A stretch of DNA of 64,000 nucleotides from a bacterium. Its GTDB lineage: Bacteria > Krumholzibacteriota > Krumholzibacteriia > G020349025. The DNA is taken from positions 1 to 64,000 of the forward strand of contig JANLSU010000050.1 in assembly GCA_031362565.1 (NCBI GenBank). The letters are read 5' to 3'. A program made the position numbers and the translations under genes. A model generated the notes under the pieces. That model was not told the origin of the DNA. It worked only from the letters and a program-made list of their open reading frames with translations, and did not search any database. Of this stretch, positions 1 through 36,462 are shown piece after piece. Every line of letters starts with the position of its first letter. Within the stretch, counting starts at the first letter, position 1.

Positions 1-51
1 CCGAGCGAGTCGACCTTCGCAGGGCCGCGTCCTGAGTGCATTCCGGGGAAA

Positions 52-73
52 AACGGTAGCAGGAACGGTAGCA
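52..73. repeat. Direct repeat AACGGTAGCA x2 (12-bp period) upstream of tRNA-Arg; possible recombinase arm-type site
   Basis: AACGGTAGCA at 52-61 and 64-73; function is inferred. Confidence 0.45.
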
Positions 74-147
74 AACTCGAAGTTTCCACAGTGGCCGAGG
101 GAGTCCCGATGCGCTATCCTCTCCGCTCACAAGCGCTTACCTTAGGC

Positions 148-224
148 GCGGCTGTAGCTCAGTTGGATAGAGCAGCGGACTTCTAATCCGCAGGTCGCTG
201 GTTCGAGTCCAGCCAGCCGCGCCA
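148..224 (+). tRNA. tRNA-Arg(TCT)
   Basis: Full cloverleaf: acceptor GCGGCTG/CAGCCGC, D-arm GCTC..GAGC, anticodon arm GCGGA-CT TCT AA-TCCGC, T-loop TTCGAGT, encoded CCA. Confidence 0.98.
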
Positions 225-251
225 CTCGATCAAGCTTAGGATGTGAATGGG

Positions 252-470
252 CTATGACGCTTTGAGGACGAACGTCTCGACCTCGAGGTCGTTCGTCGTG
301 GAGCCGGGCTCGACGTGTAGAACTTCGAACCCGATGACGCGGTTGTTGATGTCCTTCATGACGACGACTTCGTCGTTGGTTCCCTCGCAGATGTGTTCTC
401 GCGACGGATCGTCCAGCCACACGGTGAGTGTGTGGCCTACCGCATCATAGATTACTTTGATCTTGCCCAT
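252..470 (-). CDS. DUF2283-like small protein (putative antitoxin), copy 1
   Basis: 72 aa MGKIKVIYDAVGHTLTVW...VVVMKDINNRVIGFEVL; 66/72 aa identical to 4377-4595. Confidence 0.8.
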   Translation of the reverse strand: MGKIKVIYDAVGHTLTVWLDDPSREHICEGTNDEVVVMKDINNRVIGFEVLHVEPGSTTNDLEVETFVLKAS

Positions 471-1043
471 ACCGTCTCTCCGGACTTGATCGAGGCGGTG
501 GGGTACGCTGTGATCAGAAACCCCGACCCATCCTCGCGACGGGCAACTGCACACAGCCAGCGTGGTGCGTCACCTTGGTAGAAGAGAAGCACGTTGTGAT
601 CCTTGCGACTGCGGCGAATCTCGTCCGGCTCTGCTAGAACGCGCGCGATGTCCCGTTCGCGCCCCGCTAGCGTAGGATGCTTCCGCACTGAGCGTACGCC
701 ACCTCCCAAACACCGGCGGCGGACTCGACGCATTGGAGCGCTGCGTGAGGCGACAATGCCCAGCTGTTGACTTGCAAGTCCAGCCGCCCGACGACTGGCA
801 CGCGAGGTAATCCCGGGCAGTCGGCAGAGGTGCGCGCAGATCGCAGCACACGCCCGAGCGGAACGACTGCACAAGACTCGTGGTCTGACCCCATTTTGGG
901 CGACAGCTAGGCCGCGCACGTGCTGCAACCCGCCGGGATCCAAGCCGGGAGGCGGCGCACGCGCGCAACGCGGTTGGTCGGCCCGTGCATCGCACGACAA
1001 ATTGGAATGGGGTCATCACCTCGAAAAGCACGGTGCCGGCCAA
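452..1043 (-). pseudogene. Putative toxin partner of the DUF2283-like gene, split by a ~300-bp insertion (about 683-983)
   Basis: N-part MAGTVLFEVMTPFQFVVRCT (984-1043, GGAG RBS) and C-part KHPTLAGRERDIARVLAEPDEIRRSRKD...FLITAYPTASIKSGETVWARSK (452-682) lie in different frames; the stop overlaps the DUF2283 start region. Confidence 0.6.
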
Positions 1044-1072
1044 TGGATCTCCGTTCGTGTCGAGCGGAACGC

Positions 1073-1159
1073 CTACTTTCGGCCTCGCAAGACTTTGATC
1101 GCTGTTCGGGTATTGGAGCGCTTCATCCCGGCCGTGCGGGCCTGACTGCGAGCCTCGAT
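1073..1159 (-). pseudogene. 3' remnant of an AbrB/MazE-type antitoxin gene
   Basis: Translates as IEARSQARTAGMKRSNTRTAIKVLRGRK*, homologous to the C-terminus AEARRQARKAGMKRSDIKSAISTVRKRK* of 3842-4105. Confidence 0.7.
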
Positions 1160-1294
1160 TTGAATGGTTCGCAAATCGTGCAGACCGGATAAGAAATTCC
1201 TACGTGTCGCCATGAGGGACACGCGCGGTGGGAAGCTGGCACAAAGACACTCCGCCGATATTCGGGCGGGGCAGAGGTTGTTTCGCGCGCCCGG

Positions 1295-2932
1295 CTACGG
1301 CGGGCAACTTCCTCCCCGCGTCAAGCTGTACGCGAGGGCTGCGTCGTTGCAAGCGTCTTCGTACACGGCATTGATCGTGAGGGTACTGGCGTCGACAATC
1401 CCCCGCCCCGTCGTGGTGCAGACGATGATCTCCGCATCGCAGCCGCACCGAACGCCAAAGAACCCTTCGAGGCTGACTCCGAGGAGTTGGCTGCCGGACA
1501 GCGTGGCCAGCAACCTCGCGGTCCCTCCGGCAATGTGAATCGTGCCGGAGATGGCGTTCTGGTTCTGGCTGATGATTGCGCAGACCGGTACCACGGTTGT
1601 CCCGGATGGACCGCTCATGGTGACGGACCCCGTCCAGGTGCCGGTGAGATCGTCGCCGCTACTGCTTCCGACGCCGCGGACACACACATCAGTCGCGGTC
1701 GTCGTGCCCGGCGACACGAGGCAGGCCGTTACGTTGACGAAGAGAACACCCCCGCGGGTTGCGGCAATGACAGTGGTGTATTGCCCCTGCGAGTTGGTGA
1801 AGCCGATTGGCTGCTGGATTTCGATGCCGTCGCCGGTGAGCTGTACCGCGAAGGGAGCGCCCTGCGATTCCGCCTGCCCGTTGAACAACAGCCCAAACTG
1901 GATATCGAGCGAGTGCGGAAACCCGACCTGGAGATTGCTCGGGATCACGATGGTGTCGACGACGGGGCGCGCGCAGAGATCGCGTAGGATCGTCTCGCGA
2001 TCGAGGCGGTTGGCCACGGAATCGAATCCAAAACGCGCCGCCTGCTTCTGCCAGAAGAGGACGTTCGCAAGCGACGCGAGGCTTTGTTGATCTCCGCAGC
2101 GCTGGTTATTGCGGGCGATAGCCTCCCGGAGCTTCGGCGCAATGGCAGCGTGGGCCTGCGCGGTTGCCGCGACATCGTCGAAGGTGGCAAAGAGGGAAGA
2201 ACCCAGCACAAGCCGTGTTTCGTCCTTCCACATGATGAATTGGCCGATCGCGGCGGCGAGTTGGACGTCATTCGAGGCCTGCTCGATCGCAGGCAGTACA
2301 TCGCTCGCAAAGCACGAACGGTACGTTGCGAAGAGAGTGGGGAGGTCCGCCACCCCGACGGCGGCCGCCAGACACGGCGCCCCTTGGACCAGTATGAGGC
2401 GCGCGAGTTCCTGCGCAGTCGCAAACCCGACGGTGCCGCCGCTGAAATGCGTCATGGGCACGGTGAATCTCCCCGCGCCGGATCCCGCGAACGACGGCTC
2501 GAACGACGTCCCGTTGCCCGAAAACAGGATCGCCATCGGAACGCTGCCAGCATCGGGGGTTTTCGTGGTCGCAATTTCAAGGGTCACCGGGGCCGCGAAC
2601 ACCGTGCCCGACGGCTTGAGTTCCACGCCACCGACCACCCCGCCGGCAAGTGGATAGCCGTCGATGGCGGTGATGGGCGTCATCGTGATGGTGCTGCCGA
2701 TTGCGATGGCATCCACCGGGATGGTCAGCGTGTACACGGTGCCATCGTCGGCCGTGGTCTGGAGCGTGCCGCCTGCCGGGCCAATGCTGCCCGAGGCAGT
2801 ATTCGTGGTTTCGCGCGTAACATGATCGGGCTCCGGTTCGGGGGGGGGCGACACATCGTCGCCGCAGGAGACCAGCGCGAGAGCCGGCAGCAGAGCGGCA
2901 AAGCGGGCGCAACGGGCGAAGAAAGACCTCAT
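1295..2932 (-). CDS. Lipoprotein with N-terminal ZU5-like region (islet cargo)
   Basis: ATG at 2932 after AAGGA; lipobox ALVSC; SIGPAGGTL..TLTIP..ELKPSGTVFAAPVTL pattern; 545 aa. Confidence 0.75.
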   Translation of the reverse strand: MRSFFARCARFAALLPALALVSCGDDVSPPPEPEPDHVTRETTNTASGSIGPAGGTLQTTADDGTVYTLTIPVDAIAIGSTITMTPITAIDGYPLAGGVVGGVELKPSGTVFAAPVTLEIATTKTPDAGSVPMAILFSGNGTSFEPSFAGSGAGRFTVPMTHFSGGTVGFATAQELARLILVQGAPCLAAAVGVADLPTLFATYRSCFASDVLPAIEQASNDVQLAAAIGQFIMWKDETRLVLGSSLFATFDDVAATAQAHAAIAPKLREAIARNNQRCGDQQSLASLANVLFWQKQAARFGFDSVANRLDRETILRDLCARPVVDTIVIPSNLQVGFPHSLDIQFGLLFNGQAESQGAPFAVQLTGDGIEIQQPIGFTNSQGQYTTVIAATRGGVLFVNVTACLVSPGTTTATDVCVRGVGSSSGDDLTGTWTGSVTMSGPSGTTVVPVCAIISQNQNAISGTIHIAGGTARLLATLSGSQLLGVSLEGFFGVRCGCDAEIIVCTTTGRGIVDASTLTINAVYEDACNDAALAYSLTRGGSCPP

Positions 2933-3237
2933 GGCTCGTCCTTTGGTGCGGGGCAGGCCCACCACCGGCGGTCCGCTGGTTGAGAGAGAGAGACAGTCTA
3001 CCGCGCTGCCGTAGAGAAACGCGAGTGGCGAATTCGGCGCAGAGAGAACCGGGGTCGTTCGCGGGCGATCAGCCGCGCGGGCACCGGCCCCGTAAAGCGC
3101 GAATTCCCTGAAGAGTCGCCCATCGGCCCCCGGTCCAGCGTTCCGAGTCTCGACGGGAGTTCGAATAGCGTCAGCTACGGGAGCCAGTTCAATGGGCTCG
3201 AACCGGTCCGGTGTTCGCTCTGTGCTGATCGCTTCCT

Positions 3238-3373
3238 TGCTTGTCCCTTGCATGTCCACCACGCGGCACGGGCCGGGATGGAAGGGGACGAGCCGGGAAG
3301 ACGACCGTCGTAACTGCAAACGTGGTAACGCGAGGCGGGATGGGCCGGGATCAGCAGCGACGGCGCTCCCACA
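3238..3373 (+). repeat. att arm A (136 bp): TGCTTGTCC/TGCATGTCC direct repeat plus 10-bp-phased GG(G/C)A boxes
   Basis: Gapless alignment with 4169-4304 at roughly 60% identity and identical distance to the core. Confidence 0.8.
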
Positions 3374-3421
3374 ACTTCTAATCCGCAGGTCGCTGGTTCG
3401 AGTCCAGCCAGCCGCGCCACT
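3374..3421 (+). repeat. att core: exact copy of the tRNA-Arg 3' half (179-226)
   Basis: 48-bp identity ACTTCTAATCCGCAGG...GCCGCGCCACT, starting in the anticodon arm. Confidence 0.95.
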
Positions 3422-3434
3422 TCGGGTCGCAAGT

Positions 3435-3845
3435 TCATTCGCGTTTCAAAGACCGATCCAAGAACGTCCGTGGCGTGACAACTCGCACACCGGCGAAACC
3501 ATTGACGCGAAGTAGGGCGCGATCGCCACTTACGATCATGGATACGCCGCCGGCGATCGCGCAGGCGAGGAACTTGTCGTCGTCCGGGTCGGTGCAGACC
3601 GGTTCGGATAGATCGTGGGCCGCAACGAAGTCCGCGGTGACGAGGACCAGACGGAGAAGCTCGCTCGGGTTGACGTGTTGGTACTTGCGCGCGAGTTCCG
3701 CAGTGACCTGTTCATACTCATCGAAGATCGACCGAGAGACGACGAGCGTGATCCGGCGATCACGCCACGCCTCAAGGATCCGGGCCGGCGGCCCGCCAAA
3801 GAAGATCCCGGACACGAAGACGTTCGTATCGAGGACGATTCTCAC
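3435..3845 (-). CDS. PIN-domain (VapC-like) toxin
   Basis: MRIVLDTNVFVS ... DPDDDKFLACA ... IVSGDRALL. Confidence 0.92.
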   Translation of the reverse strand: MRIVLDTNVFVSGIFFGGPPARILEAWRDRRITLVVSRSIFDEYEQVTAELARKYQHVNPSELLRLVLVTADFVAAHDLSEPVCTDPDDDKFLACAIAGGVSMIVSGDRALLRVNGFAGVRVVTPRTFLDRSLKRE

Positions 3846-4105
3846 TTGCGTTTCCGCACCGTGCTGATCGCGGACTTGATGTCGGAGCGCTTCATCCCTG
3901 CCTTGCGGGCCTGACGCCGCGCTTCCGCCACGAGATCATCGAAGTCCGCCATCGACGGTGGAGTGATCTCCTTGAGAATGACAACGTCGCCGCCCCCGAC
4001 AACAAGAAACTGTGTTCCAGTGCGCAACCCCATCTCCTTGCGGATGTCCTCTGGAATGACAATCTGGCCTTTCGAGGACATCTTGGTCGTTGCGAGCTTG
4101 CCCAC
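3842..4105 (-). CDS. AbrB/MazE/SpoVT-family antitoxin
   Basis: GTG after AAGGAGG; TKMSSKGQIVIPEDIRKEMGL; 4-bp overlap with the PIN gene. Confidence 0.9.
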   Translation of the reverse strand: MGKLATTKMSSKGQIVIPEDIRKEMGLRTGTQFLVVGGGDVVILKEITPPSMADFDDLVAEARRQARKAGMKRSDIKSAISTVRKRK

Positions 4106-4168
4106 GCAAACCTCCTTCAATTTGACACCAGCTGTGATCTTACCAGTAAGCCTGCCAGGTGTCCACCG

Positions 4169-4304
4169 TGCTTGTCCCTTGCTTGTCTGCCAGGCGGCAG
4201 GAGGAGGGACCTGAAGGCACGGGGCGGGAGCGCAAGCGCCAGAAGCGCAGACAGGGCAATGTGATGCGGGACATTGGAGGACGTTCCGGGACGAACGCCA
4301 CCCA
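4169..4304 (+). repeat. att arm B (136 bp)
   Basis: Begins TGCTTGTCCCTTGCTTGTC, gapless homolog of arm A. Confidence 0.8.
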
Positions 4305-4359
4305 ACTTCTAATCCGCAGGTCGCTGGTTCGAGTCCAGCCAGCCGCGCCACTCGATCAA
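4305..4359 (+). repeat. att core: exact copy of the tRNA-Arg 3' half plus flank (179-233)
   Basis: 55-bp identity. Confidence 0.95.
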
Positions 4360-4376
4360 CATGGGTGTGATTCGGA

Positions 4377-4595
4377 CTACGACGCCTTGAGGACGAACGT
4401 CTCGACTTCGAGGTTGTTCGTTGCGGAGCCGGGCTCGACGTGCAGAACTTCGAACCCGATGACGCGGTTGTTGATGTCCTTCATGACGACGACTTCGTCG
4501 TTGGTCTCTTCGCACACGTGTTCTCGTGACGGATCATCCAGCCAAACCGTAAGCGTGTGGCCGACCGTGTCGTAGATTACTTTGATCTTGTCCAT
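4377..4595 (-). CDS. DUF2283-like small protein, copy 2
   Basis: 72 aa paralog of 252-470; only the last codons of its partner gene survive (GETIWTRSK*, 4577-4606). Confidence 0.8.
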   Translation of the reverse strand: MDKIKVIYDTVGHTLTVWLDDPSREHVCEETNDEVVVMKDINNRVIGFEVLHVEPGSATNNLEVETFVLKAS

Positions 4596-4624
4596 ATCGT
4601 CTCTCCGTTCGGCATACGAACCTC

Positions 4625-4849
4625 TCAGTGATAGTCGTCGATCTCGACGTCCAAGACATTCCTGTCAGCCCTTCGAAAGCAAATCCGCCATTGGTCGTTG
4701 ATCCGAATGCTGTGCTGCCCGGCACGGTCCCCGGCAAGCCTTCCCAGCCGGTTCCCTGGAGATGCACGAAGGTCGTCCAGGGTCGTGGCCGCGTCGAGTT
4801 GGGTAAGCTTGCGAAGCGCCGCACGATGGATCGACGCCGGAAGCCTCCG
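4625..4849 (-). pseudogene. HigB/RelE-family toxin (plasmid maintenance killer type), 5'-truncated
   Basis: RRLPASIHRAALRKL..LDDLRASPGNRL..GQHSIRINDQWRICF..VEIDDYH; N-terminus replaced by the arm relic at 4853; no HigA follows. Confidence 0.75.
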
Positions 4850-4852
4850 TTT

Positions 4853-4904
4853 TGCTTGTCCACGCGGCCGGACGCCCGGGGATCCCACGGGTTGGGGCGG
4901 GACG
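4853..4904 (+). repeat. Arm relic C (no tRNA core)
   Basis: TGCTTGTCC followed by 10-bp-phased GG(G)A boxes that align without gaps to arm A from 3249. Confidence 0.55.
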
Positions 4905-4955
4905 AAGCCCGTGCGTGTGCGTTTGCGCCCCGGCCACATTCACGGCCACCGACGG

Positions 4956-5414
4956 CTAGTCGCCGCTCTGCATCATCTCGGTCATGCGGCGCCGCATTTC
5001 CGCGGGCGACACGTGTTCGACGATCGCACAGATCGTCCACTTGTTGCCGCCGGGGTCCTTCACTGTGGCCGAGCGGTATCCATAGAACTGGTTCTTCGGT
5101 TCAGTCACCGACTTCGCGCCCGAGGCCAGCGCGCGCCCGTAGGTGACGTCGACCGCGTCGCCGTCTTCAACGTAATACGATAGCGATGCCGGCATTGCGT
5201 CCATGCCCTGCGCCGGGTTCGCCTCGCCGAACATCACGACCGAGTCGCCAATCATCATCTCGCAATGGGCGATCGTGCCGCTGGGCGCGTCGTAGCGGTC
5301 GACAACCTTGCCGCCGAACGCCTTCTTTAGGAACTCGAGAACTTCGGTCGCGTTGGGCACGGCGAAGCCTGGAGTGACAGTATGATGACCGGCAGGCTTG
5401 GGAAACTTGGACAT
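4956..5414 (-). CDS. VOC/glyoxalase (PhnB-like) family protein
   Basis: HTVTPGFAV..EFLKKAFG..AHCEMMIGDSVVM..QFYGYRSATVKDPGGNKWTI; GGAGG RBS. Confidence 0.9.
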   Translation of the reverse strand: MSKFPKPAGHHTVTPGFAVPNATEVLEFLKKAFGGKVVDRYDAPSGTIAHCEMMIGDSVVMFGEANPAQGMDAMPASLSYYVEDGDAVDVTYGRALASGAKSVTEPKNQFYGYRSATVKDPGGNKWTICAIVEHVSPAEMRRRMTEMMQSGD

Positions 5415-5530
5415 GACGTCCTCCACGGGTGAAGGGTTCGTGAGCGCGGGTAGTATAGACCTCGCACCTGGCCGTCCGCGACCGCGCCGCCCGGTCCGCC
5501 CTATGGACCACCCCGGGGCGCGTCGGTCGA

Positions 5531-5592
5531 TGCTCGTTGCCTGCTTATCTACCCGGCGGCAACGGAGGGGAATTGAACGGAGAGGGCAAGCG
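5531..5592 (+). repeat. Arm relic D (no tRNA core)
   Basis: TGCTTATCTACCCGGCGGCAACGGAGGGGAATTGAA aligns without gaps to arm B TGCTTGTCTGCCAGGCGGCAGGAGGAGGGACCTGAA. Confidence 0.65.
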
Positions 5593-5599
5593 ATCATGG

Positions 5600-6061
5600 T
5601 CAGGCTGCGTGGTCGCGGAGGTAGTCGAGGCTTCCTGGCAGGTCGCGGATGAGCCGGAGAAACATGTCCATCGCCGCTGTCTGAACGTTGCGTCCCGACT
5701 CCCATCTCGACACCGTATTGGCACCGAGTCTCAAGAGATGCGCGAGACCCGCCTGCGTCAACGTGAAGTGCTCTCGGATCGCCCGGATCTCATCGGCCGA
5801 CAGGAGTCCATGTTTCTTCCGATAGATCGCGATCGCGTCTTCGTGGAGCCGCTTCGCTTCCTGAAATCGAAGAACGACCTCGCCGCACTTCGAACACCGG
5901 AGGTGAGACGCCGACGGGACGCTGACCTCTTCACCGTTCACGGGGAGTCGCAGCGATCGTCGCGCTTCCTTCATCATGGCGCCGCACGACGGGCATGCGT
6001 CGTTCGGTAGGATCCGTCCTCGGGTTGGCACGCTGTCAGGCCGCCCCTTGGTGTTTCTCAT
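5600..6061 (-). CDS. MqsA-family antitoxin (zinc ribbon + HTH)
   Basis: CPSCG...CSKCGE zinc ribbon; LTQAGLAHLLRLGANTVSRWESG HTH. Confidence 0.88.
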   Translation of the reverse strand: MRNTKGRPDSVPTRGRILPNDACPSCGAMMKEARRSLRLPVNGEEVSVPSASHLRCSKCGEVVLRFQEAKRLHEDAIAIYRKKHGLLSADEIRAIREHFTLTQAGLAHLLRLGANTVSRWESGRNVQTAAMDMFLRLIRDLPGSLDYLRDHAA

Positions 6062-6380
6062 CGCCACCACCTTCATCCTCATGCAGTGAAACGATCACAC
6101 ATTCGCCGCGAAGGATCAGCTTCAGGTACACCGTCTCATGGCCAATCTGGGGCTTGAATACGTACATCCATTCCCCGGTCGTCCTAGACCTATGCCGGCC
6201 GGCAAAGTCGCTTGCGATCAAACCTAGCAGGACCTGGCGCACGTCCTCCGGATCGAGCCCTGCCTCGAGTGCTGCCAGTTCTCGGCTCGCTTTGGCGGTC
6301 ATCCGAATCGTGCCTGCGCGTGCGCGGGCACAGATGCCGGCAAGGATTTTGGGTAGCCACGTCGACAAGTCGCCAGTCAA
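6036..6380 (-). CDS. MqsR-like toxin (start uncertain)
   Basis: Upstream of and overlapping mqsA-like gene; EWMYVFKP...YLKLIL...VIVSLHE. Confidence 0.7.
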   Translation of the reverse strand: MTGDLSTWLPKILAGICARARAGTIRMTAKASRELAALEAGLDPEDVRQVLLGLIASDFAGRHRSRTTGEWMYVFKPQIGHETVYLKLILRGECVIVSLHEDEGGGDEKHQGAA

Positions 6381-6419
6381 CCTTATAAGTAATTATGCAT
6401 ATGGTTAGTCAGCCGTCAA
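6378..6419 (-). promoter_or_regulatory. Sigma70-like promoter of the MqsRA-like operon overlapped by an AT-rich imperfect palindrome (candidate operator)
   Basis: Minus strand TTGACG-N16-CATAAT; plus strand CAACCTTATAAGTAATTATGCATATGGTTAG. Confidence 0.55.
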
Positions 6420-6746
6420 GGGCCGAGAATTCGAACGGCGCCCTTGCCCGGAAGTCACTGCGGCACGGCATTTGATCCGGCGCGCGGGCGCAGTTCCCCA
6501 TGCATGCGGGGCGCCGTCAGCGGAGAAACGGAGGAATCTGGTGCTGCGATGCTCGTTATCGCTCGAGGTTCCCTTACCGGGCTCCAAGAAGCGCAATCGA
6601 CGTTTACAGAAGATGTCGGCGAACGGGTCGAAAGGGCGTTGCACGCCTCCGGCGCCGCTCGCACCAGCGGGTCTGACGGCATAGCCGCCATTTGGGATGC
6701 TCCGAGTGAGGCTGGCGAGCCGGGGTTGGCGACAAGTTCGAAAGCG

Positions 6747-9053
6747 CTACCGTCGCAGCACGATCTTGCCGCGCTGGCGGTGGGTCTCGAATGTGACGTC
6801 GTAGATGTAGATGCCGGAACTCACGACGCGGCCTTCCGCGTCGCGGCCGTCCCAAGTGATATGCCCGCCGCTGCCCGCCGTGTACATTGTGAGCCGGCGC
6901 ACACGCGAGCCACGAACATCGTAGACATCGAGTTGCACGGTGCCGGCGTGTGGCGCCGCGAACTCGAGCAGCATCGCCCCGGGGCTCGGGTTCGCTGGCC
7001 GCCGCGTGATCTCGAAGCTGGCGTGCGCCGGAGCTGCCTCGGCCGAGTCCGGCGCGTCAGGTTCGATTCGCGCCGCCATCATCATGACCGGTGCCGTCGT
7101 CACGACGAGTTCCGGCGGCTGGCTGCCCTCGGAGGAACTGAAGTAGACACTGTGCGCGTCGACGCTCTTGATGGCGAACGAATAGGTGCCATTGCCACCG
7201 ACCGCCGCCGTCACGTCCAACTCGACCCAAGTCTTGACCTTGACGGCGCCCAGAGCGGCGAGCGCCGGCGCCGCGATATCCGGCGCATTGTTCCAGCTGA
7301 GCACGCTTTGCGTCCAATCCATCGTCGAGGCACGAAGCGTGTTGGCGACGGGATAAACGCTCCCCGCGTTCACGTCCTCATCGACGACGTAAAGGCGCAG
7401 CTTGGCGTTCGTGACGTTGCCCGTGAGGCCCGCCAGGGTGAATTTGAAATAGCTCCGGTACTCGGGGCTGCCCGAGCTTCGAACTCGTAGGCTGGTCTCG
7501 GATCCGTAGTTCGTCGCCATGTTCGTCGATTCCACACTCGCGTCGTGCACCGCTCGGAACGTCACCACCGGCGACGCGCCGCCGCCATCGTCATTCAAGA
7601 TCATGCCGTCGCCGCGGCTCTTGCCGATCGTGCCACCCGACGCGCTATAGAGCTCGACGACGAACGTCTCGTCCGGCTCGATCTGCGTGTCGCCATTGAT
7701 GGTGACGAGAACCTGCTGGGACGTCGTCGTACCGGAGAATTTCAGCGTCCCCTTGCTCGAAGCGAAGTCGCCGCCCGACGTCGCCGTACCTGCCAAAGTC
7801 CGATACTTGACCGATACGGATTTCCCGGTCGCGCCGGCCAAGGTGACGTCGAAGGCCAGAGTCTTGGTGCCGCTGTCGCCTTCCTGGATGGCGGCATTCG
7901 CAATCGACAAGACGCTCGAAGCCACGACGCCCTTCACATCGACCTGCAAATCATCACTCGTTTGCAATGCGCCGTCGCTGACCGTAAGTCGGAGCACGTA
8001 CAAGCCTGGCAGGTTGAAGCTGACGTTCGTGCCGAGCGCCTGCGGGTCCGCGAACTGCGCCATCCCGGGCCCACTCACTTGGCTCCAAAGCGGCGACAGA
8101 TGCGCCGGCGCCGGATCGCCGTCGTCCGCACTCGACCCCTGCAGCGCCAACGGCGCGGGCAGCGTGACCGTCCCATCGTCTCCAGCAATGACGCACGGCG
8201 GCATGTTGAAGATGGCGGGGCTTCCCGCCCACGGTTTGCGGCGCAGTTGGAACGGATTCGTGGGATCCATGGAAACCGTCACCTGGAGCGGATCTTCCTC
8301 GACTCCAAGGTTAACCTGCACGCGCCGCAGGTTGGGCTCGGACCACGGGCGGTCGTCCTTCCACGAATGGCCGTCGCCGTGGATGTACATCACTGGTTTG
8401 CCGAAGGCGGCGCTCGCGGTTCGGAAGCGCGTGAAGAAAGGCTGGTGCTGGCTCGAGCCCGGACCTGCGTGTCCCATGACGACGGCGGCTCGCACTTCTC
8501 CCTTGCGCGCCGAAAACTGTTGCTCGACCCAGGCCGCATCCTGTCCGAGGCGGGTCGTCCATTCGCTGCTGCTTTGAACGGCTCCACCGACAATATTGAT
8601 GCCGATGAAGAGCACGCCCTTGTCGACGAAGGCGAAATTCTCATGGCGCGCGTCCTGATGTTCGACGGGCAGCGTGTGGCAAAAATGCGATTCGTAGGAA
8701 TCGAAGTAGCGTTTCCAATACGTCCAGGCTTGGCTCGGACTCGCGCAGTCGTTCCACTCGTTGTCACCCGGCAGCACGAAAGTCGGAACCGCAAAGCCCT
8801 GAAGCAGGGTCGCGATTTCTTGGTACACCGATTCGGTGCACGCCGAAGTGCCGTTCTTGAAATCCCCGACGTGCACCAGGAATTCGGAGGGACTGTACCG
8901 GTTGTGATCGAGGATCTGGCGGCGAAGAGTCGGGATCTCGGACGACGAATACGGGATGTCGCCGGTAATCGAAAAGGTCACCGGTTGGGCCTGGGCCCGG
9001 GCGAGGCAGGGGACGATGAGACAAATTGTCAAAAGGCACGCCGCGTTGCGCAT
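6747..9053 (-). CDS. Secreted multidomain metallophosphoesterase (+PKD-like, Calx-beta, DNRLRE/CBM96-like, FlgD-Ig/T9SS-like C-terminal domain)
   Basis: Signal peptide; GD..HVGD..PGDNEW..HGDGH; EGDSG..TAT..D..DTQIEPDETF Calx-beta; VYDVRGSRVRRL..WDGRD..G..VSSGIY. Confidence 0.85.
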   Translation of the reverse strand: MRNAACLLTICLIVPCLARAQAQPVTFSITGDIPYSSSEIPTLRRQILDHNRYSPSEFLVHVGDFKNGTSACTESVYQEIATLLQGFAVPTFVLPGDNEWNDCASPSQAWTYWKRYFDSYESHFCHTLPVEHQDARHENFAFVDKGVLFIGINIVGGAVQSSSEWTTRLGQDAAWVEQQFSARKGEVRAAVVMGHAGPGSSQHQPFFTRFRTASAAFGKPVMYIHGDGHSWKDDRPWSEPNLRRVQVNLGVEEDPLQVTVSMDPTNPFQLRRKPWAGSPAIFNMPPCVIAGDDGTVTLPAPLALQGSSADDGDPAPAHLSPLWSQVSGPGMAQFADPQALGTNVSFNLPGLYVLRLTVSDGALQTSDDLQVDVKGVVASSVLSIANAAIQEGDSGTKTLAFDVTLAGATGKSVSVKYRTLAGTATSGGDFASSKGTLKFSGTTTSQQVLVTINGDTQIEPDETFVVELYSASGGTIGKSRGDGMILNDDGGGASPVVTFRAVHDASVESTNMATNYGSETSLRVRSSGSPEYRSYFKFTLAGLTGNVTNAKLRLYVVDEDVNAGSVYPVANTLRASTMDWTQSVLSWNNAPDIAAPALAALGAVKVKTWVELDVTAAVGGNGTYSFAIKSVDAHSVYFSSSEGSQPPELVVTTAPVMMMAARIEPDAPDSAEAAPAHASFEITRRPANPSPGAMLLEFAAPHAGTVQLDVYDVRGSRVRRLTMYTAGSGGHITWDGRDAEGRVVSSGIYIYDVTFETHRQRGKIVLRR

Positions 9054-30209: not shown

Positions 30210-31619
30210 CTAACTGCGGATCGCGGCGGCGCCGGAGCGTTCGCCGTACAGGCGGCGCAAGTCGGCAGCCGTTTGCCGGCCGTCGTGCTTGCGAACTGCC
30301 AAGGCGCGGAGGCGCTCGCCGAGTTCGGGCCGCAGCCGCACGATGCGCCCGAGCTTTTCTTCAATTTCACGGACCGCCGGTGCGTCGGCGCGCAACACGC
30401 ACAGCGACGCGATCTCGGCCGAGATCTCGCTCGCGATCGTGCTGACCACCTGGGCTGCGGGGGTGGCTTCGCGCACGAGCGGCAGCACGCCGCCCGCCAA
30501 CGCCTCGAGCGCCACGTGCGCCGACCGGCGCGGGTCGATGCCAGGCAGCACGGCGACGTCGGCCAGCGCCAGGAGCGCCGCGAATTCACTGCGTTCAACT
30601 TCGCCCGCGAAGCGCACCCGCCGCTCCGGCTCGAGGCGCGCGGCGTTCGCCCACCAGGCGTCGGCGCGTCCCTGAGCGTGCAGCAGATCGAGGTGATCGG
30701 CGAGCGGCTGGTACATCTCGTTCGTTTGCAGGATGGCGTACAGCGCCTCGGGATTCCGGGCCGCGAGCGCCGCGCGCAGGCTGTCGATGGCCGGCGACGG
30801 CGGCCCGAGCTGCGCGACGATGGCGATCAGGCCGGGCTGGGTCCGCAGCAATTCCGGCAGGGCGAACAGCAGATGCTCGAAGCCATCCGTTTCGCCTTCG
30901 TGTTGCACGCACAACACCACGCAGGCCCGCTCCCAATCGATGCCATCCAACCGCGACGCGAGTTCGGGTTTGCGGGCAAGACGTAAGGCGGCGTTCCGGC
31001 GCTCTGGGCGTGGGAGGGGCTTAAAAAACTCCAAGTCCACACCACGGTGGAGCATGCGCGGCCGTAGGGGGGACTCGCCGGCGCGCCCCGGAAACGCCGC
31101 CTCCATCGAGCGGCGCATGTCCTCGTCGAACAACACGATGTGGCGGGCGTCGCGCAGCACGGCGCGGCCGCGCTCGGAGACCTCGCGCCGGTCGATGAGA
31201 TCGGTCCAGCGCGGCGTCACGCAGTAAGGAGTTCCGGTGCGCTCGTGCACGAGCCGCACCACGCGTCCGGCGATGCCCAGTCCGACGGCGTGCAGGACGT
31301 CGAGGCCTTCGGTCTGCAACACGGCGCAGACTTGGCTGGCGAGCAGGTCGAGACATTCGTCGGTAGGTTCGCGGTCGATCCAGGCGGCGGGCGCCGGATC
31401 GGCGGCAGCTGCCGCGCTATTGCGGTAGACCCACGTTTCAGCATGACGAATGGAATGCGTGATGCGCGGTGCCGGAGCAGGAACGACCTCGATGCGATGT
31501 GTCTGGAAGCCCTCGCTCGCGAGACCGCGTGCGACGTCGTCGACGAGAGCATGCGCGCCCGGGCTGCGGACGCGCCCTTCGAGCACGAAGCCGACCATCT
31601 TCACCACCACCCGTCCCAA
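30210..31619 (-). CDS. Glycosyltransferase family 4-like protein (start uncertain)
   Basis: LDVLHA..HRGVDLEFF..VRFAGEV..LADVAVLP..ALEALAGG. Confidence 0.8.
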   Translation of the reverse strand: MGRVVVKMVGFVLEGRVRSPGAHALVDDVARGLASEGFQTHRIEVVPAPAPRITHSIRHAETWVYRNSAAAAADPAPAAWIDREPTDECLDLLASQVCAVLQTEGLDVLHAVGLGIAGRVVRLVHERTGTPYCVTPRWTDLIDRREVSERGRAVLRDARHIVLFDEDMRRSMEAAFPGRAGESPLRPRMLHRGVDLEFFKPLPRPERRNAALRLARKPELASRLDGIDWERACVVLCVQHEGETDGFEHLLFALPELLRTQPGLIAIVAQLGPPSPAIDSLRAALAARNPEALYAILQTNEMYQPLADHLDLLHAQGRADAWWANAARLEPERRVRFAGEVERSEFAALLALADVAVLPGIDPRRSAHVALEALAGGVLPLVREATPAAQVVSTIASEISAEIASLCVLRADAPAVREIEEKLGRIVRLRPELGERLRALAVRKHDGRQTAADLRRLYGERSGAAAIRS

Positions 31620-31722
31620 CCACCTCGGCCGGGAGCGCAGAGTCCTTGCAGTGGTGCGTTGTCGTCAATACAAAATATGTGTTGTCGGGAATGGCGCGGA
31701 GTGCGGACTTGCGCGCGGCGCT

Positions 31723-33279
31723 TCAGAAACGACTGACAAGCAGGGCGCTGACTCCTTCAAACTCCAAGACTCGATAGCAAGTACCGGCCGTGCACGCGAG
31801 GCCGCCGCGCCGCCGTCCCCAGAAGAGCGACAAGCTGTGGCGATCGCGGCTCAAACTCGCTTGCAGGGAATCGAACGCGCGCCGTGCGACGTGTCCGGTG
31901 ACCGGATCCGTGGCTTCACCCGGATCATTGGTGGTCTGGCGGACGACGCCGATCGAGAAATGTTCGGCCCACGCATAGGTGAGAGATGCATAGCGGTCCT
32001 CGATGTCGACCGATTGGCGCGACGTGCGGCGCGTCGCCGACTGGCGCTCCAATTCGGCTTCGATGCTGTGCACGCCGGCGAACGGCATTTGCGTGAAGCC
32101 GCCGAACGTATCGCGGTCATGCGTGCTGTCGAAGTCGTCCGCGCCGCGGCCACCAAAGAGCGCCGCCGTACGGCCCCGCCAGTGGGTGGCGAGTTCGGCG
32201 TAGCGTTCGTGAAACCGCCGCGACCGGGCATTCTCGGCGCGGCTCCAATTGAGTGTCAGTTCCGCCCAGCCGCGGTAATCAACGCGCGTTTCGAACTGAT
32301 ACCCCTGTTCTTGCTGCGGCTCGACGACGTGGGTGACACGGTTCAAGAGGGCATACGAATGCTCGCGGACCAGCGGCGGCGGTTCGTTCGCGAAGAGCTG
32401 CAGCCCTTGGTAGTCTTTGTATTCGTAGGTCGCGCCCCATCGGAGTCCCGGCAACGGTTCATCGAGAGTCGCGGACTGCGACACGTACACGCCGTAGCCG
32501 CGCCCTTGGCTGGTGCGCGGGCTGGGGCGAGCGAAATGTCCCGACACGTGGGCGTACTCGCCATACGTATCAAGTGTCAAACGCGACCAGCCGGCGCGCT
32601 CGAGCCACGGGTCGGCGGTGAACTGCACGAAGCCGCCGCCGCCTTCGTGGGGCGCGCCGTCGATGCCATCGATACGCACGTAGTTGGCGCCGGCCCGCGT
32701 GCCGCGCACGATCTCGGCGCTCGCCGTCGCGCCGGCCACGTCGAGGACGCGCGGTTGGTCGGGCGGCAGAGCCTCGACACGCGGCTTGCCTTGCACGACC
32801 TCGACATTCCAGCGGGCGCCGCCCGTCCGCAGGCGCAGGCCATCGAGATCGCGCGAATCGGCGTATTGCGCCAATCCAATCTCTTCGCGAATCACCCCTG
32901 GGAGTTCAAAGGCACGCAGCAGCAGGCCGCGCCCGAAGAGGGTTTCGTAGTTGCCGACCGTAATCTCGAGGCCGTCGGCGGCCCAGGTGGCGTAGCGCCG
33001 CGAGAACTCCCGCAGTTGGAGAGTGCGCGGCTCGGAGACGTCATAGAACTCATACCGGAAACCGAGCCGCAACGCGGCGTGCGACCAGTCGAGCGTGAAA
33101 GCGTCGAAGGTCGAATAGCCCGTCGACGGTAGTCCGGGGTTCGGCGGTTGGAACGGCAGGTTGCCAGGCGGCTTGCCGGAGCGAATGAGGGCGATATTCG
33201 AAGCACTGATCTGCGCCTCCGCACCCGCCGCGAAGCAAGCGAGAGCGCCGACGATAGCAAAAATATGCGGCTTGTTCAC
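31723..33279 (-). CDS. DUF6029-like outer-membrane beta-barrel
   Basis: Signal peptide; ITVGNYETLFGRGLLLRAFE; C-terminal GRRRGGLACTAGTCYRVLEFEG..SRF. Confidence 0.75.
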   Translation of the reverse strand: MNKPHIFAIVGALACFAAGAEAQISASNIALIRSGKPPGNLPFQPPNPGLPSTGYSTFDAFTLDWSHAALRLGFRYEFYDVSEPRTLQLREFSRRYATWAADGLEITVGNYETLFGRGLLLRAFELPGVIREEIGLAQYADSRDLDGLRLRTGGARWNVEVVQGKPRVEALPPDQPRVLDVAGATASAEIVRGTRAGANYVRIDGIDGAPHEGGGGFVQFTADPWLERAGWSRLTLDTYGEYAHVSGHFARPSPRTSQGRGYGVYVSQSATLDEPLPGLRWGATYEYKDYQGLQLFANEPPPLVREHSYALLNRVTHVVEPQQEQGYQFETRVDYRGWAELTLNWSRAENARSRRFHERYAELATHWRGRTAALFGGRGADDFDSTHDRDTFGGFTQMPFAGVHSIEAELERQSATRRTSRQSVDIEDRYASLTYAWAEHFSIGVVRQTTNDPGEATDPVTGHVARRAFDSLQASLSRDRHSLSLFWGRRRGGLACTAGTCYRVLEFEGVSALLVSRF

Positions 33280-33827
33280 TGCTTCGGGGCCTTGTCCAGC
33301 AACGCCTCGGTTGCCTTGCGGAGGGCATCGATTTCGCCGGGCCGGTAGCCGAACGTCGTGCGCACGACCGTACCGTCCTTATCGAGGAGCAGCGTCGTCG
33401 GCAACGCCGGAATCTGCAACTGGCTCTGCGCCGCGCGGTTCAAATCGAGGACGATGGGAAAGTCGATGCCGTGGCTCTTGGCAAACGGTTTCACCTTCGG
33501 CGCGTTGCGCGGTCCGTCCTCGTTCACACCGACGATCTGCAAGCCGCGCGGCGCCAGGTCGGCATACAACTGCTGGAGTTCCGGCAAGGCGCTGATGCAC
33601 GGCTTGCACCAGGTCGCCCAGAAATCCAGGATGACCGGTCCCTTGCCGAGATACGACGCCAGTTCGACGCTACGCCCTTCGAGGTCTTGGAGCCGCAGGC
33701 CGGCGAGTGAGATTTTTTGCGCCGGCGCTTCCTGTCCAGCAGCCGGGCCAGCCAGAACTGCCGCGAGCAGGCAGGTGAGTGCCGCGGTTTGGGCGCGAGC
33801 GATGCGGCCACGCCGGTGCATTCTCAT
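33276..33827 (-). CDS. TlpA-family thiol:disulfide oxidoreductase
   Basis: DFWATWCKPC; LPTTLLLD; ATGA overlap with the upstream gene. Confidence 0.92.
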   Translation of the reverse strand: MRMHRRGRIARAQTAALTCLLAAVLAGPAAGQEAPAQKISLAGLRLQDLEGRSVELASYLGKGPVILDFWATWCKPCISALPELQQLYADLAPRGLQIVGVNEDGPRNAPKVKPFAKSHGIDFPIVLDLNRAAQSQLQIPALPTTLLLDKDGTVVRTTFGYRPGEIDALRKATEALLDKAPKQ

Positions 33828-34372
33828 CGATACAATCCCTTCACGGTCGACCATGTTGGTGTCGCAACCGGCGTCGGCAGGTTCGCGACGATGGCTGCCC
33901 GCACGTGCGCCTCGTTGAAGGCGAAGTCCAAGTCCGACTGGTAGCGCACGATGCCCTGCGGGTCGATGACGAAGTAGTTGTCACGGATCTGATTGTAATA
34001 CGCTGGGCCCACGAGATATCCACCCAGACGCAGGAACGGGAACGTGATGCCGGTGCGATCGACGAAGCTTTGGGCACCGGAGGCCGAGCCCTGCCACACG
34101 TCCACCGCCAAGGTTTGAAATCCAGGCCCCGCCTTATAGTCCTGCCAGACTTGCTCCACGACCGGACCGGCCGTGCGACACTCGCCTCAATTCCACCCAA
34201 ACAGCGCCAGCAGCACGACCTTGCCGCGGAGCGCGCTGAGCGTCCAGCTCTGACCGTTGGTGTCGGTGAGCGTGAAATCAGGCGCCGGGTCGCCGACCTG
34301 GAGCGCGGCGGCCGGCGATCCGAGCGCGCCACAGAGGGCGGCGGATGCGACAAGGAGGCGCAAGGAACGCAT
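33824..34372 (-). CDS. Exported redoxin/AhpC-TSA-like selenoprotein (UGEC motif; Sec at TGA 34187-34189), 182 aa
   Basis: ORFs 34187-34372 and 33824-34159 are in frame: ..APDFTLTD..LRGKVVLLALFGWN-TGA-GECRTAGP..; the TGA occupies the first Cys of CxxC; SECIS-like hairpin follows. Confidence 0.88.
34157..34175 (-). promoter_or_regulatory. Putative bacterial SECIS element
   Basis: 11 nt after TGA: CACGGCCG-GTC-CGGTCGTG, an 8-bp stem (one G-U pair) with G/U at the apex. Confidence 0.7.
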
Positions 34373-34508
34373 GGTCTTCTCCTCGGCACTGGAACGAACC
34401 CCACGAGTCTACAGGACCAACACTACACCCAACCAGGCCAGGCGCCCGGGTATTCCGGGGCTGGGCTGGGGTGGGGCGGGGCGAAGGCGGCCCAAGGTTC
34501 GCGGGCGT

Positions 34509-35348
34509 TCAGACCAGCGCCGCACTCACGCGGCGCTCCCGATCGGCGACGTGCGCCGCGATGAGCGCCAGGGCGTCGTGCGTGCCGGCGTCGATCGCCA
34601 CCCACTCGGCGCCTTGCGCGCGGGCGTCGGCCCCGAGCGCCAGCCCGAGCCCGGCGTCGAGACCGGAGTGCACCAGGACGAGCAGTGCCGGGTGCTCGGC
34701 GCGCAGTCCGCCGCGCACCACCTCGGGGGTCACATCGGACCCCAGGTCCACCACGCGCCAACCGCGTTCGGCGAGCGTCACGTGGACGAGGATCGCGGTG
34801 ACCGCGTCGGCGGTGCCGGGTGCCGCTGCCAGAAGCGCGGTCGCGGCTGCAACGCGAGTCGCCGCCGTTTGGTCGAGCAACGAACGCAACGTCGTGACGG
34901 CGCATTGCTCCGCCCGACGGCGCTTGAAGGCGTCGAAGTCGGGCGCCAGCGCCGTCGCAACGAGTTCGTGCCAGGCCCGCGCCACGAGGGCCGCGGATTC
35001 CGCCAAGCGCAGCCCATGACGGTGCAGGTCGAGGGCAATGCCGCGCGCCGTGGCGGTGTCACCGTTCCCCAAGGCGGTCGCGATGTGGGCGGCGAGAGCA
35101 GCGTGGTTCCCCTGCAGGAGCAGCAGTGCGAGTTCATCGATCTGAGCCGCGGGCCGCACTTCGGTGTCGACGATCGACAGCCCGAGTTTGCGGCCGGCCT
35201 CGGCGACATCCTGCACGCGGTACTTGCGATGCCCGCCCGGCGTGCGCACGCAGCGCAAGAGCCCGGCGTCGGTCCAACGTTTGACAGTGGAAATGCTGAC
35301 CCCGCAGACGCGGGCTAAATCGGCGGTCGAATAGAATCGATCCCTCAT
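34509..35348 (-). CDS. MerR/excisionase-type HTH regulator with degenerate cobalamin-binding-like domain
   Basis: STADLARVCGVSISTVKRW..RTPGGHRKY; GWRVVDLGSDVTPE. Confidence 0.8.
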   Translation of the reverse strand: MRDRFYSTADLARVCGVSISTVKRWTDAGLLRCVRTPGGHRKYRVQDVAEAGRKLGLSIVDTEVRPAAQIDELALLLLQGNHAALAAHIATALGNGDTATARGIALDLHRHGLRLAESAALVARAWHELVATALAPDFDAFKRRRAEQCAVTTLRSLLDQTAATRVAAATALLAAAPGTADAVTAILVHVTLAERGWRVVDLGSDVTPEVVRGGLRAEHPALLVLVHSGLDAGLGLALGADARAQGAEWVAIDAGTHDALALIAAHVADRERRVSAALV

Positions 35349-35553
35349 CCCTACCCATCCTCCCTGGCGCCGGTGCCGCCGACAGCGGATTCGAACGATC
35401 CGGTCGGTATGGGCTCCTTTGCGTTCGACTAGGCGCAGAGTAGCCGCATGGAGTCCAGGCGCGCAAGCGCCGGTTTCGCCGACCAAGGGCGGAAACGAGC
35501 GCGGCCCCGGAGTTCCGGGGCCGCACCGCACGTCCAAGCTGCGCCTTGGTGGG

Positions 35554-36168
35554 TCACTCGACGAGGATGGCCTTCTTGATCACGATCGGCACGAGCGGCT
35601 GGCCCTCGGAGATCTGTGTCGCCGCGACCTTGACGGCTTTGATCTTCTCGACGACATCGGTGCCGCCGACGACTTTCCCGAACACGCAGTAGCCGACGCC
35701 GTCGGAATACTTCGCCTTGTCCAAGAAGCCATTCTTGGCCGTGACGTTGATGAAAAATTGGTCGGTGGCGCTATTCGGTGCATTCGTGCGCGCCATGGCG
35801 ACGGTATAGAGCTCGTTGGACAGGCCGTTCGTCGATTCGTTGACGATCGGTGGCAGGCCCGGCTTCTCCTTGTAATTCACATCGAGCCCACCGCCCTGAA
35901 TCATGAAGTTGGACATGACGCGGTGGAATACGGTGCCATCGTAGTGGCCGTTCTTCACGTAGGCCAGGAAGTTGGCGACGGTCTTCGGAGCTTCCTTCTT
36001 ATAGAGCTCGATCGTGATGTCGCCGAGTGTGGTCGTCATCTTCACGACCGGGTTGGTCGCATCCTTCACTTTCTGGACCGCCTCGGGGACTGCCGCAGTT
36101 GCGGCGTGAGTGGCGCCCAGCACGAGGATCGTGCTGGCAAGGGCGAACGCCCGACGAACCGATTGCAT
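35554..36168 (-). CDS. Exported cyclophilin-type peptidyl-prolyl isomerase
   Basis: APKTVANF..YDGTVFHRV..FMIQGGG..AMART..QFFIN..YCVFGKV. Confidence 0.95.
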   Translation of the reverse strand: MQSVRRAFALASTILVLGATHAATAAVPEAVQKVKDATNPVVKMTTTLGDITIELYKKEAPKTVANFLAYVKNGHYDGTVFHRVMSNFMIQGGGLDVNYKEKPGLPPIVNESTNGLSNELYTVAMARTNAPNSATDQFFINVTAKNGFLDKAKYSDGVGYCVFGKVVGGTDVVEKIKAVKVAATQISEGQPLVPIVIKKAILVE

Positions 36169-36367
36169 GCGAACCTCCGGCAGCAAGGCTTGGAACGGCA
36201 GGCCCTGGAATCGGGCCGCGAATTTTCGGCGCGGGAGACTACCACGCGCCGCACGAACCGCGACCCCCTTCGACACCACGGCCCGGCGCCAGGTTCCAAG
36301 GTGGCGGTTGCCGCCGCCCGGCGCGCCGTTCCGAGGCACGACCGGCCGCTGCCGGGAGCAAAGCAAA

Positions 36368-36393
36368 GGCCCCGCGGCACGTGCCGCGGGGCC
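36368..36393 (-). terminator. Rho-independent terminator of the porin gene
   Basis: Perfect 26-bp palindrome GGCCCCGCGGCACGTGCCGCGGGGCC followed by TTTGCTTT on the minus strand. Confidence 0.75.
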
Positions 36394-36462
36394 ATGGACC
36401 TTCGCCAGGGGTGTCGTGGGAGGAAGGCCCTCCTCGCCCCGACGTTCGCCGGAAAGCGAGCG

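Follow-up and report, generated by a model that had tools for sequence, protein, structure and literature searches.

The window analysed here, the first 64 kb of contig C75 in the 5.4-Mb genome (G000, 133 contigs) of an uncultured Krumholzibacteriia lineage, opens with an intact tRNA-Arg(TCT) gene, behind which exact copies of the 3' half of that tRNA alternate with short runs of small genes. In our judgement this row is probably a tandem accretion array of islets resembling cis-mobilizable elements (CIMEs), bounded by attR-type sites and made or moved by an integrase that is now missing. The kind is already known, from CIMEs and from tycheposon islands; what is newly found is a defined arm, its use at three tRNAs and a candidate integrase. 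An earlier note on this DNA had seen here an undescribed integron-like system, a view that the data do not favour: the arm resembles the P arm of an ordinary attP/attR, the row is decaying, it fits the description of CIMEs, it has no attC features, and the genome's IntI lies elsewhere.

The array is defined by a 55-nucleotide (nt) block present in three copies at 179, 3374 and 4305, with spacings of 3195 and 931 nt, that begins with the final base of the anticodon stem and takes in the rest of the tRNA as far as the CCA. Copy 3 repeats copy 1 with 100% identity across all 55 nt, and copy 2 matches the first 48. The 46-nt core occurs three times in the 5.4-Mb genome, always on C75, and not at all in a reversed control; ARAGORN, the repeat search and the genome search together confirm the recurrence of the tRNA half at 3374 and 4305 that had been noted before. 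As in the islands catalogued by Islander, the displaced fragments share the orientation of the intact gene (plus strand) and lie on the matching side, downstream of it, and identity sets in at tRNA position 30-31 for the Arg core as for the Leu and Ser cores described below, a canonical crossover sublocation. Outside the exact cores, likeness falls away, the flanks that follow copies 1 and 3 being only 89% alike across 305 nt.

That residual likeness could be taken as the trace of local duplication, by unequal crossing-over or slippage, or of an assembly artefact in a metagenome bin, all the more as Logan contigs break at the repeats, so that order across the cores has no independent confirmation, and as the comparison genome G001 is itself a co-assembled bin. 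We regard such an origin as very unlikely. In every copy, and at three different tRNAs, the repeat has its boundary precisely at the anticodon loop, the junctions of arm with core and of core with cargo recur in independent assemblies (seven halves in six metagenome contigs), the cores are 100% identical where the flanks are 73-89% identical, and the 55-nt repeat is shorter than a read.

Of the two sides of the core, one alone bears a conserved arm, as the earlier note had observed; the arm, put there at 136 bp, measures 137 nt in the alignments. Nine arms enter these, of which the window contributes two, another locus in this genome one, G001 one and metagenome contigs five, and they match over 137 nt, 65-81% identical in pairs and essentially gapless, with one 1-nt indel in contig L021. 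Invariant at the far end is the doublet TGCTTGTC(Y)(Y)TTGCWTGTC; seven GGGAY repeats, four distal and three proximal and 10-11 nt apart, keep their G/A positions across all arms, whilst the spacers vary freely. Such direct repeats, in helical phase and always equally far from the crossover, make the pattern of a protein-binding attP or attR arm, and this one has the look of a P arm from an ordinary attP/attR served by a two-domain tyrosine integrase, comparable in layout with the arm-type integrase sites and Xis sites of phages L5 and lambda. The doublet and the GGGAY repeats are predicted to bind, probably, the integrase and its directionality factor.

With about 185 nt conserved at fixed length and ending in an intact T arm and CCA, the arm and tRNA half of each unit might also be thought to form a structured RNA gene, a tRNA-like small RNA, an explanation to which we attach almost no credence. 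RNAalifold on the nine arm-plus-core copies returned a covariation term of +0.74, which is no support for structure, with any double change at 6 of 37 predicted pairs; Rfam at E<=1 recognises the tRNA alone in the region; and conservation in short direct repeats about 10 nt apart is the pattern of protein-binding DNA. Inverted repeats of at least 18 nt number zero in positions 1-9000.

The array itself has no recombinase. PF00589 has no match in C75, Pfam reports no tyrosine recombinase on 12 open reading frames (ORFs) of the locus, and tblastn with three integrases finds no match in positions 1-7000, which bears out what the earlier note had said of the units; neither is there a remnant of an integrase or transfer gene inside any of them. 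Of the genome's three PF00589 matches, two are a XerD-like and a XerC-like protein, both on C70, and the third, an integron integrase, stands at the end of C130.

The arm recurs at other tRNAs and in other genomes. A model of the arm built on sequence alone, R1, was run against 151 genomes of the class and matched two: this genome five times (3236-3384, 4167-4315 and the truncated 4850-4914 in the window, and two places on C130) and G001 four times. blastn for the arms in their own genome found none beyond C75, the diverged tRNA-Leu copies being recovered only by R1. On C130 a full arm (31607-31755, minus strand) joins the 3' part of tRNA-Leu(TAA), 6 kb from the intact tRNA-Leu(TAA) at 37596-37681. 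The stretch 31446-37681 (L036) is a second such array, in which three antisense genes (PD40 repeat, FlgD_ig and erythromycin-esterase-like) and a truncated arm precede the full arm; the Leu 3' half has diverged and there is no integrase. In G001 contig C37 an arm at 3449-3597 joins an exact tRNA-Ser(TGA) 3' half. The junction of arm and tRNA lies 1-2 nt before the 7-nt anticodon loop in Arg, Leu and Ser alike. The 46-nt core, allowing up to three mismatches, is present in 3 of 41 related genomes (three copies here, two in G001 and one in G002), and in the species-genome collection the core pattern appears only in G001 and G002. A metagenome scan for the core gave 21 matches on 20 contigs, namely 14 full tRNAs and seven halves, and arm sequence precedes all seven halves, which lie in six contigs, as far as these contigs reach, with four arms complete; contig L025 adds a further complete arm whose core has one mismatch.

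As for the integrase that the earlier note had placed elsewhere, a candidate family does share the arm doublet, but this genome retains only a stump of it. GCTTGTC pairs on one strand within 15 nt number seven in the whole genome, and the five that are 11 nt apart all lie in arms (C75, and C130 twice) or in a triplet on C65. There, at C65:4549-5277 (L035), a tRNA-Gln(CTG) is followed by three GACAAGC repeats 11 nt apart and then by the start of a truncated tyrosine integrase gene, of which only the first 153 residues are left and which is the sole member of the candidate family in this genome; the family is found in 5 of the 151 class genomes, this one included. The best relative of the stump is an intact 377-residue integrase (L043:10034-11164) on G001 contig C53, where tRNA-Ser(TGA) is followed by 75 nt, the doublet TTGCTTGTCCCTTGCTTGTC, about 55 nt and the integrase start, and this doublet is identical at 21 of 21 nt to that of window arm 3. 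No Ser half occurs within 11 kb of this tRNA-Ser element; it is found on C37 instead. C53 and C37 each begin inside a repeat-protein gene, on facing strands, and the two contigs probably abut, an inferred join that would give an island of about 21 kb in the order tRNA-Ser, doublet, integrase, ..., arm, Ser half. Because the doublet is shared with integrase loci, and because of this probable Ser island, the arm makes most sense as the P arm of elements using the C53-type integrase family. The N terminus of the integrase is predicted to bind the arm-type sites; Pfam at E<=0.01 reports no arm-binding domain in it. A viral-contig search with the G001 integrase returned three distant relatives only, at 26-33% identity.

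These observations suggest how the row might have been built. Each internal boundary would be an attR-type site, composed of the 137-nt P arm and the 46-nt tRNA 3' half and lacking a P' arm, and the units would have accumulated through successive rounds of site-specific recombination at the anticodon loop, carried out by a two-domain tyrosine integrase of the lambda/L5 kind belonging to elements now absent from the tRNA-Arg locus. An integrase-bearing element that enters the tRNA would supply the missing attL, that is, a core with a P' arm, and with its directionality factor could then recombine with any downstream attR and take islets along, in cis-mobilisation. Alternatively, the element may leave alone and drop the islets behind the tRNA without a P' arm, which would account for units that start right after the core. 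Events of this sort make up the scheme of CIMEs and accretion in the literature (PMC5704250). Between visits the stack would decay, with toxin-antitoxin cargo slowing the loss.

Several facts weigh against this account. Firstly, the P' side is oddly clean for deletion remnants, with a stop codon 4-29 nt past the core at 9 of 11 measured junctions, and cargo genes with family or homology support are uniformly antisense to the tRNA: all 11 in the window, all eight in G001 and all three at tRNA-Leu, as well as throughout contigs L015, L017, L018, L021, L025, L027 and L028, unlike the genes of the tRNA-Ser integrase element, which run with the tRNA. Secondly, a unit without a P' arm is a non-canonical attP, and the movement of single units is left unexplained. 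Thirdly, what would tie the arm to the integrase is a 21-nt motif that their loci share and, in G001, a contig join that is itself inferred; tRNA-Arg yielded no element that has both this arm and an integrase, and none of about ten arms has an integrase gene beside it, most of the contigs being short. Finally, the order of units across repeats of 46-55 nt rests on the original assembly.

The clean passage from core to cargo and the uniform antisense orientation therefore keep alive the reading of the earlier note, in which native integrase-less cassettes are captured as in an integron, a separately encoded integrase moving them singly at anticodon loops and the tRNA, or the attL of a resident element, acting as attI. 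We think it unlikely on the whole, and its more specific form, with a two-domain tyrosine integrase that serves at least three tRNAs (Arg-TCT, Leu-TAA and Ser-TGA) and captures cassettes through an attL x attR reaction, is likewise doubtful. It would suit the size of the smallest units (884 nt, a toxin-antitoxin pair and the arm alone), the single sharp left boundary of the arm against at least five unrelated cargos (AbrB, lipoprotein, HTH_66, HigB and an unknown ORF), the tight core-to-stop distances with cargo orientation the same in all units seen, and the service of three tRNAs by one arm type; a fixed arm length at 65-81% identity also argues for current or recent function. Against it, the arm resembles half of an ordinary attP, the G001 arm probably closes a large integrase-bearing island in which even the arm-adjacent gene points with the tRNA, as do the element's other genes, the units are often decayed or fused, this genome lacks an intact member of the candidate integrase family, and arms occur in just 2 of 151 class genomes.

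Variation in the order of units among genomes speaks for such capture as it does for the accretion array, and here the comparison with relatives suggested earlier did find the units in other orders and neighbourhoods, in G001 and in metagenome contigs. The tRNA is followed directly by the PIN-AbrB pair in L017, L018 and L020; in G001 the pair comes behind DUF2283-X-AbrB, and in the window behind the lipoprotein unit. The DUF2283 unit follows the tRNA in the window and G001 and follows arms with other left neighbours at window core 3, in L025 and in L028. L021 carries the PIN-AbrB unit of the window (93-100% protein identity) with a different right neighbour. L023 and L029 present a tRNA with a bare right flank, an empty site, and in the occupied L017 and L018 the same flank comes after a single PIN-AbrB unit, of whose core just the last 7 nt survive. 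A sign of transfer is that G001, a member of a different genus, matches the window at 91% over the unit at 148-686 and at 78% over that at 3238-4190, where the following 20 kb give only patches of 64-76%, with a few short matches of 85-88%.

Circles and alternative joints were sought in Logan contigs. In X1, the likely source run, depth is even over all 30 depth bins, contigs break inside repeats or cores, and neither circles nor alternative joints were seen in the Logan contigs, which also counts against single-cassette capture. Two joints appeared in other runs, 227->3283 in X2 (side 28) and 4886->4304 in X3; both derive from relatives of 90-95% likeness, and a different order of units would explain them as readily as a circle.

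A tRNA-Arg gene of G001 pairs a 5' acceptor strand GCGCCCG with a 3' strand CAGCCGC, which leaves 2 of 7 pairs mismatched, as would be expected had the 3' half been imported, though in a co-assembled bin this could be a chimera. G001 has two tRNA-Arg(TCT) genes, C51:615-691 (L010) and C36:50081-50155 (L057:8082-8156), whose acceptor halves mismatch within each gene and match across the two. Recombination within the anticodon loop could have made the two as reciprocal products; alternatively, they may again reflect a chimera of co-assembly.

Among known systems, the CIME-like accretion preferred here has its closest counterpart in the CIMEs that accrete in tandem at tRNA genes, as set out in a review (PMC5704250, citing Pavlovic 2004 and Bellanger 2011). 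By that account CIMEs are att-flanked units without integration or transfer genes, stacked at the 3' end of a tRNA and expected to move together with an incoming integrase-bearing element; in the window, exact cores surround each unit, the right-hand site has the conserved arm, and the units have no integration or transfer genes of their own. Unlike the CIMEs of that text, the window units are far smaller (0.9-3.2 kb) and hold mostly toxin-antitoxin pairs, their sites are one-armed, their cargo is uniformly oriented and their host is an uncultured lineage of the Krumholzibacteriia. The tycheposon islands of Prochlorococcus (bioRxiv 10.1101/2020.12.28.424599) are, in the portion of the preprint available, likewise tRNA-adjacent, with successive integrations that push older elements inward and with scattered partial tRNAs and fragmented integrases; the window array differs in having no surviving replication or integrase module, and neither a one-sided 137-nt arm nor so small a unit features in that portion of the description. 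Islander islands (PMC4383910) share the intact tRNA with same-orientation 3' fragments and the anticodon-centred crossover, which applies to 2083 of 3919 islands, yet no tyrosine integrase lies inside the window array. The survey rejects candidates that lack an integrase or fall below 2 kb, so that units like those of the window are discarded by design, and it reports arrays of three or more as rare (4).

The likeness to integrons lies in rows of small, co-oriented, toxin-antitoxin-rich cassettes (11 of 11 supported genes on the minus strand) that each end in a recombination site and rely on a recombinase gene outside them. The site, however, is half a tRNA with an arm of direct repeats, without covariation and without the attC-type hairpin and its R''/R' boxes, and at least the AbrB-PIN cassette appears, as read from its sequence, to carry its own promoter. 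An IntI does exist in the genome, at C130:96081-97355 (L006:988-2262), where it scores 448.6 bits with TIGR02249 (cut-off 265) and lies some 340 nt away from the end of the contig. A link between it and an attC array at C75 was considered and rejected, since positions 1-9000 of the window have no inverted repeats of 18 nt or more and no 15-mer at the start of C75 is shared with another contig, though the two may adjoin across the assembly gap. Motifs GTTAGAC and GTTAGGC stand behind this gene; if it has a cassette array, that array would lie downstream of intI and be unassembled with it. Arrays downstream of intI form the 'inverted' integron layout. The pdif modules of Acinetobacter and the Xer-dependent elements known as IMEXs are also small recombinase-less modules, often with toxin-antitoxin genes and served by a recombinase encoded elsewhere. 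These use dif-like XerC/XerD sites without arms, in contrast to the tRNA anticodon stem-loop and long arm of the window.

The contig begins 147 nt before the tRNA, and nothing further left is directly readable; what can be said of that side comes from other contigs. A tyrosine integrase directly upstream of the full tRNA, on the same strand, is intact in 3 of 14 metagenome contigs, ending 6-119 nt before tRNA-Arg(TCT) (L018:1356-2678, L019:3881-5156 and L030:2186-3541), and two more (L016 and L033) keep remnants of one. Of these contigs, only L018 and L019 add an HTH_17 excisionase-like gene. The layout is common to two integrase types that are unrelated (26% identity) and is consistent with elements that carry the 5' part of the tRNA. 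Displaced 5' halves occur 0.6-4 kb upstream of full tRNAs in L020, L031 and G001 contig C36, and this genome has exact ones at C106:1350-1388 (tRNA positions 1-39) and C46:17579-17609 (1-31), the latter preceded by a copy, about 75% identical, of the upstream flank of the tRNA (85-147 in the window). No integrase lies near either of these two, which imply islets on the 5' side of the tRNA as well. Given the upstream integrases and the displaced 5' halves, tRNA-Arg is also a target of elements that duplicate its 5' part, a minority class of 159 of 3919 islands in the Islander survey (PMC4383910). Repeats of the 5' half probably caused the contig to break at base 1. An attempt to find the left neighbour by synteny was uninformative, the BNR-repeat gene upstream of the tRNA in L024 and L032 mapping to the middle of C131.

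Decay of the array is plain, in the truncated arm at 4850-4914, in gene remnants, in a broken gene X and in lost cores. The earlier note had described a degraded tail reaching to about 6.4 kb; the tail does contain a third, truncated arm, which is a decayed unit boundary, but an end of the island at 6.4 kb is unsupported by any terminal repeat closing it, and a degraded fourth core is absent from 4900-7000 (best local score 12, shuffle mean 11.8). In G001 an arm without a core lies between AbrB and an AAA/DUF4143 gene, and one core has a 3-nt deletion. AbrB genes orphaned of their PIN partner, a remnant in window unit 1 and a gene in G001 unit A, are best explained by a deletion that fused two units. 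L027 alone shows a remnant of a P' arm without an integrase: one TTGCTTGTC motif lies about 70 nt past its core, as in the P' arm of the G001 element, and no integrase follows.

Coordinates of the array are collected in the table below. The cargo is as the earlier note had described it, toxin-antitoxin modules, a lipoprotein (a lipoprotein-like ORF without a family) and a VOC protein; its stops at 252, 3435 and 4377, all on the minus strand, indeed fall close to the CCA ends, 27, 14 and 25 nt past the cores. Type II toxin-antitoxin systems are represented by PIN_3 with MazE/AbrB, MqsR with MqsA, a HigB-like toxin and DUF2283 with a DUF4258-like partner whose own match (PF14076, E=0.0067) falls short of the Pfam cut-off. 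That partner, gene X, is intact in G001 (106 residues) and in pieces here, residues 28-106 of the G001 protein matching 455-691 and residues 1-20 matching 984-1043 by tblastn. The insert that splits it, about 300 nt at 687-986, is single-copy in the genome and has neither repeats nor a known family. On the minus strand of 3374-3420 and 4305-4351, the antisense cargo mRNA would end in the complement of the tRNA 3' half, a stable hairpin that is formally complementary to the 3' end of the tRNA.

Table. Features of the tRNA-Arg(TCT) array at the start of the window.
Feature	Position	Strand	Basis
tRNA-Arg(TCT), intact	148..224	+	ARAGORN; Rfam tRNA 75.5 bits
Core copy 1, tRNA bases from anticodon loop to CCA	179..224	+	Repeat search
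DUF2283 gene, 72 aa	252..470	-	Pfam PF10049; 89% nt identical to 4374-4607
DUF4258-like partner gene X, broken	455..1043	-	tblastn of G001 X
AbrB/MazE-type antitoxin remnant, C-terminal 36 residues only	1076..1183	-	tblastn; repeat
Lipoprotein-like ORF, 546 aa	1295..2935	-	No Pfam family; signal peptide and Cys from sequence
Arm 2: TGCTTGTC-type doublet, 4+3 phased GGGAY repeats, 137 nt to core	3237..3373	+	Alignments; model R1 3236-3384, 112.5 bits
Core copy 2 (tRNA 3' half)	3374..3420	+	Repeat search
PIN_3 toxin gene, 136 aa	3435..3845	-	PF13470, E=1.8e-25
AbrB/MazE-type antitoxin gene, 89 aa	3842..4111	-	PF04014; tblastn; 4-nt overlap with PIN start
Arm 3, built like arm 2	4168..4304	+	73% identical to arm 2, no gaps; R1 4167-4315, 94.9 bits
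Core copy 3 (tRNA 3' half)	4305..4351	+	Repeat search
Second DUF2283 gene, 72 aa	4377..4595	-	Pfam; stop 25 nt past core 3
HigB-like toxin gene, without first ~15 profile positions	4625..4939	-	PF05015, profile 16-89 of 91
Truncated arm, model positions 12-76, no core behind	4850..4914	+	R1 E=1e-6; sequence
VOC/glyoxalase-family gene	4956..5417	-	PF00903
MqsA-like antitoxin	5600..6082	-	Pfam PF15731/PF15723 (MqsA/MqsR pair)
MqsR-like toxin	6036..6380	-	Pfam PF15731/PF15723 (MqsA/MqsR pair)

If the ordinary reading is true, the row behind this tRNA-Arg would be a clean natural example of tRNA-side island building in a little-known phylum, in which accretion and decay can be followed together. 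Passengers that are bounded by att sites, have no integrase and measure less than 2 kb are discarded by standard island finders and are under-counted as a result, and the conserved arm offers a searchable marker for them together with a testable pairing of site and integrase. Should the integron-like reading prove true instead, bacteria would possess a second, tRNA-based route by which single-gene cassettes are filed and shuffled, with toxin-antitoxin pairs stabilising the row.

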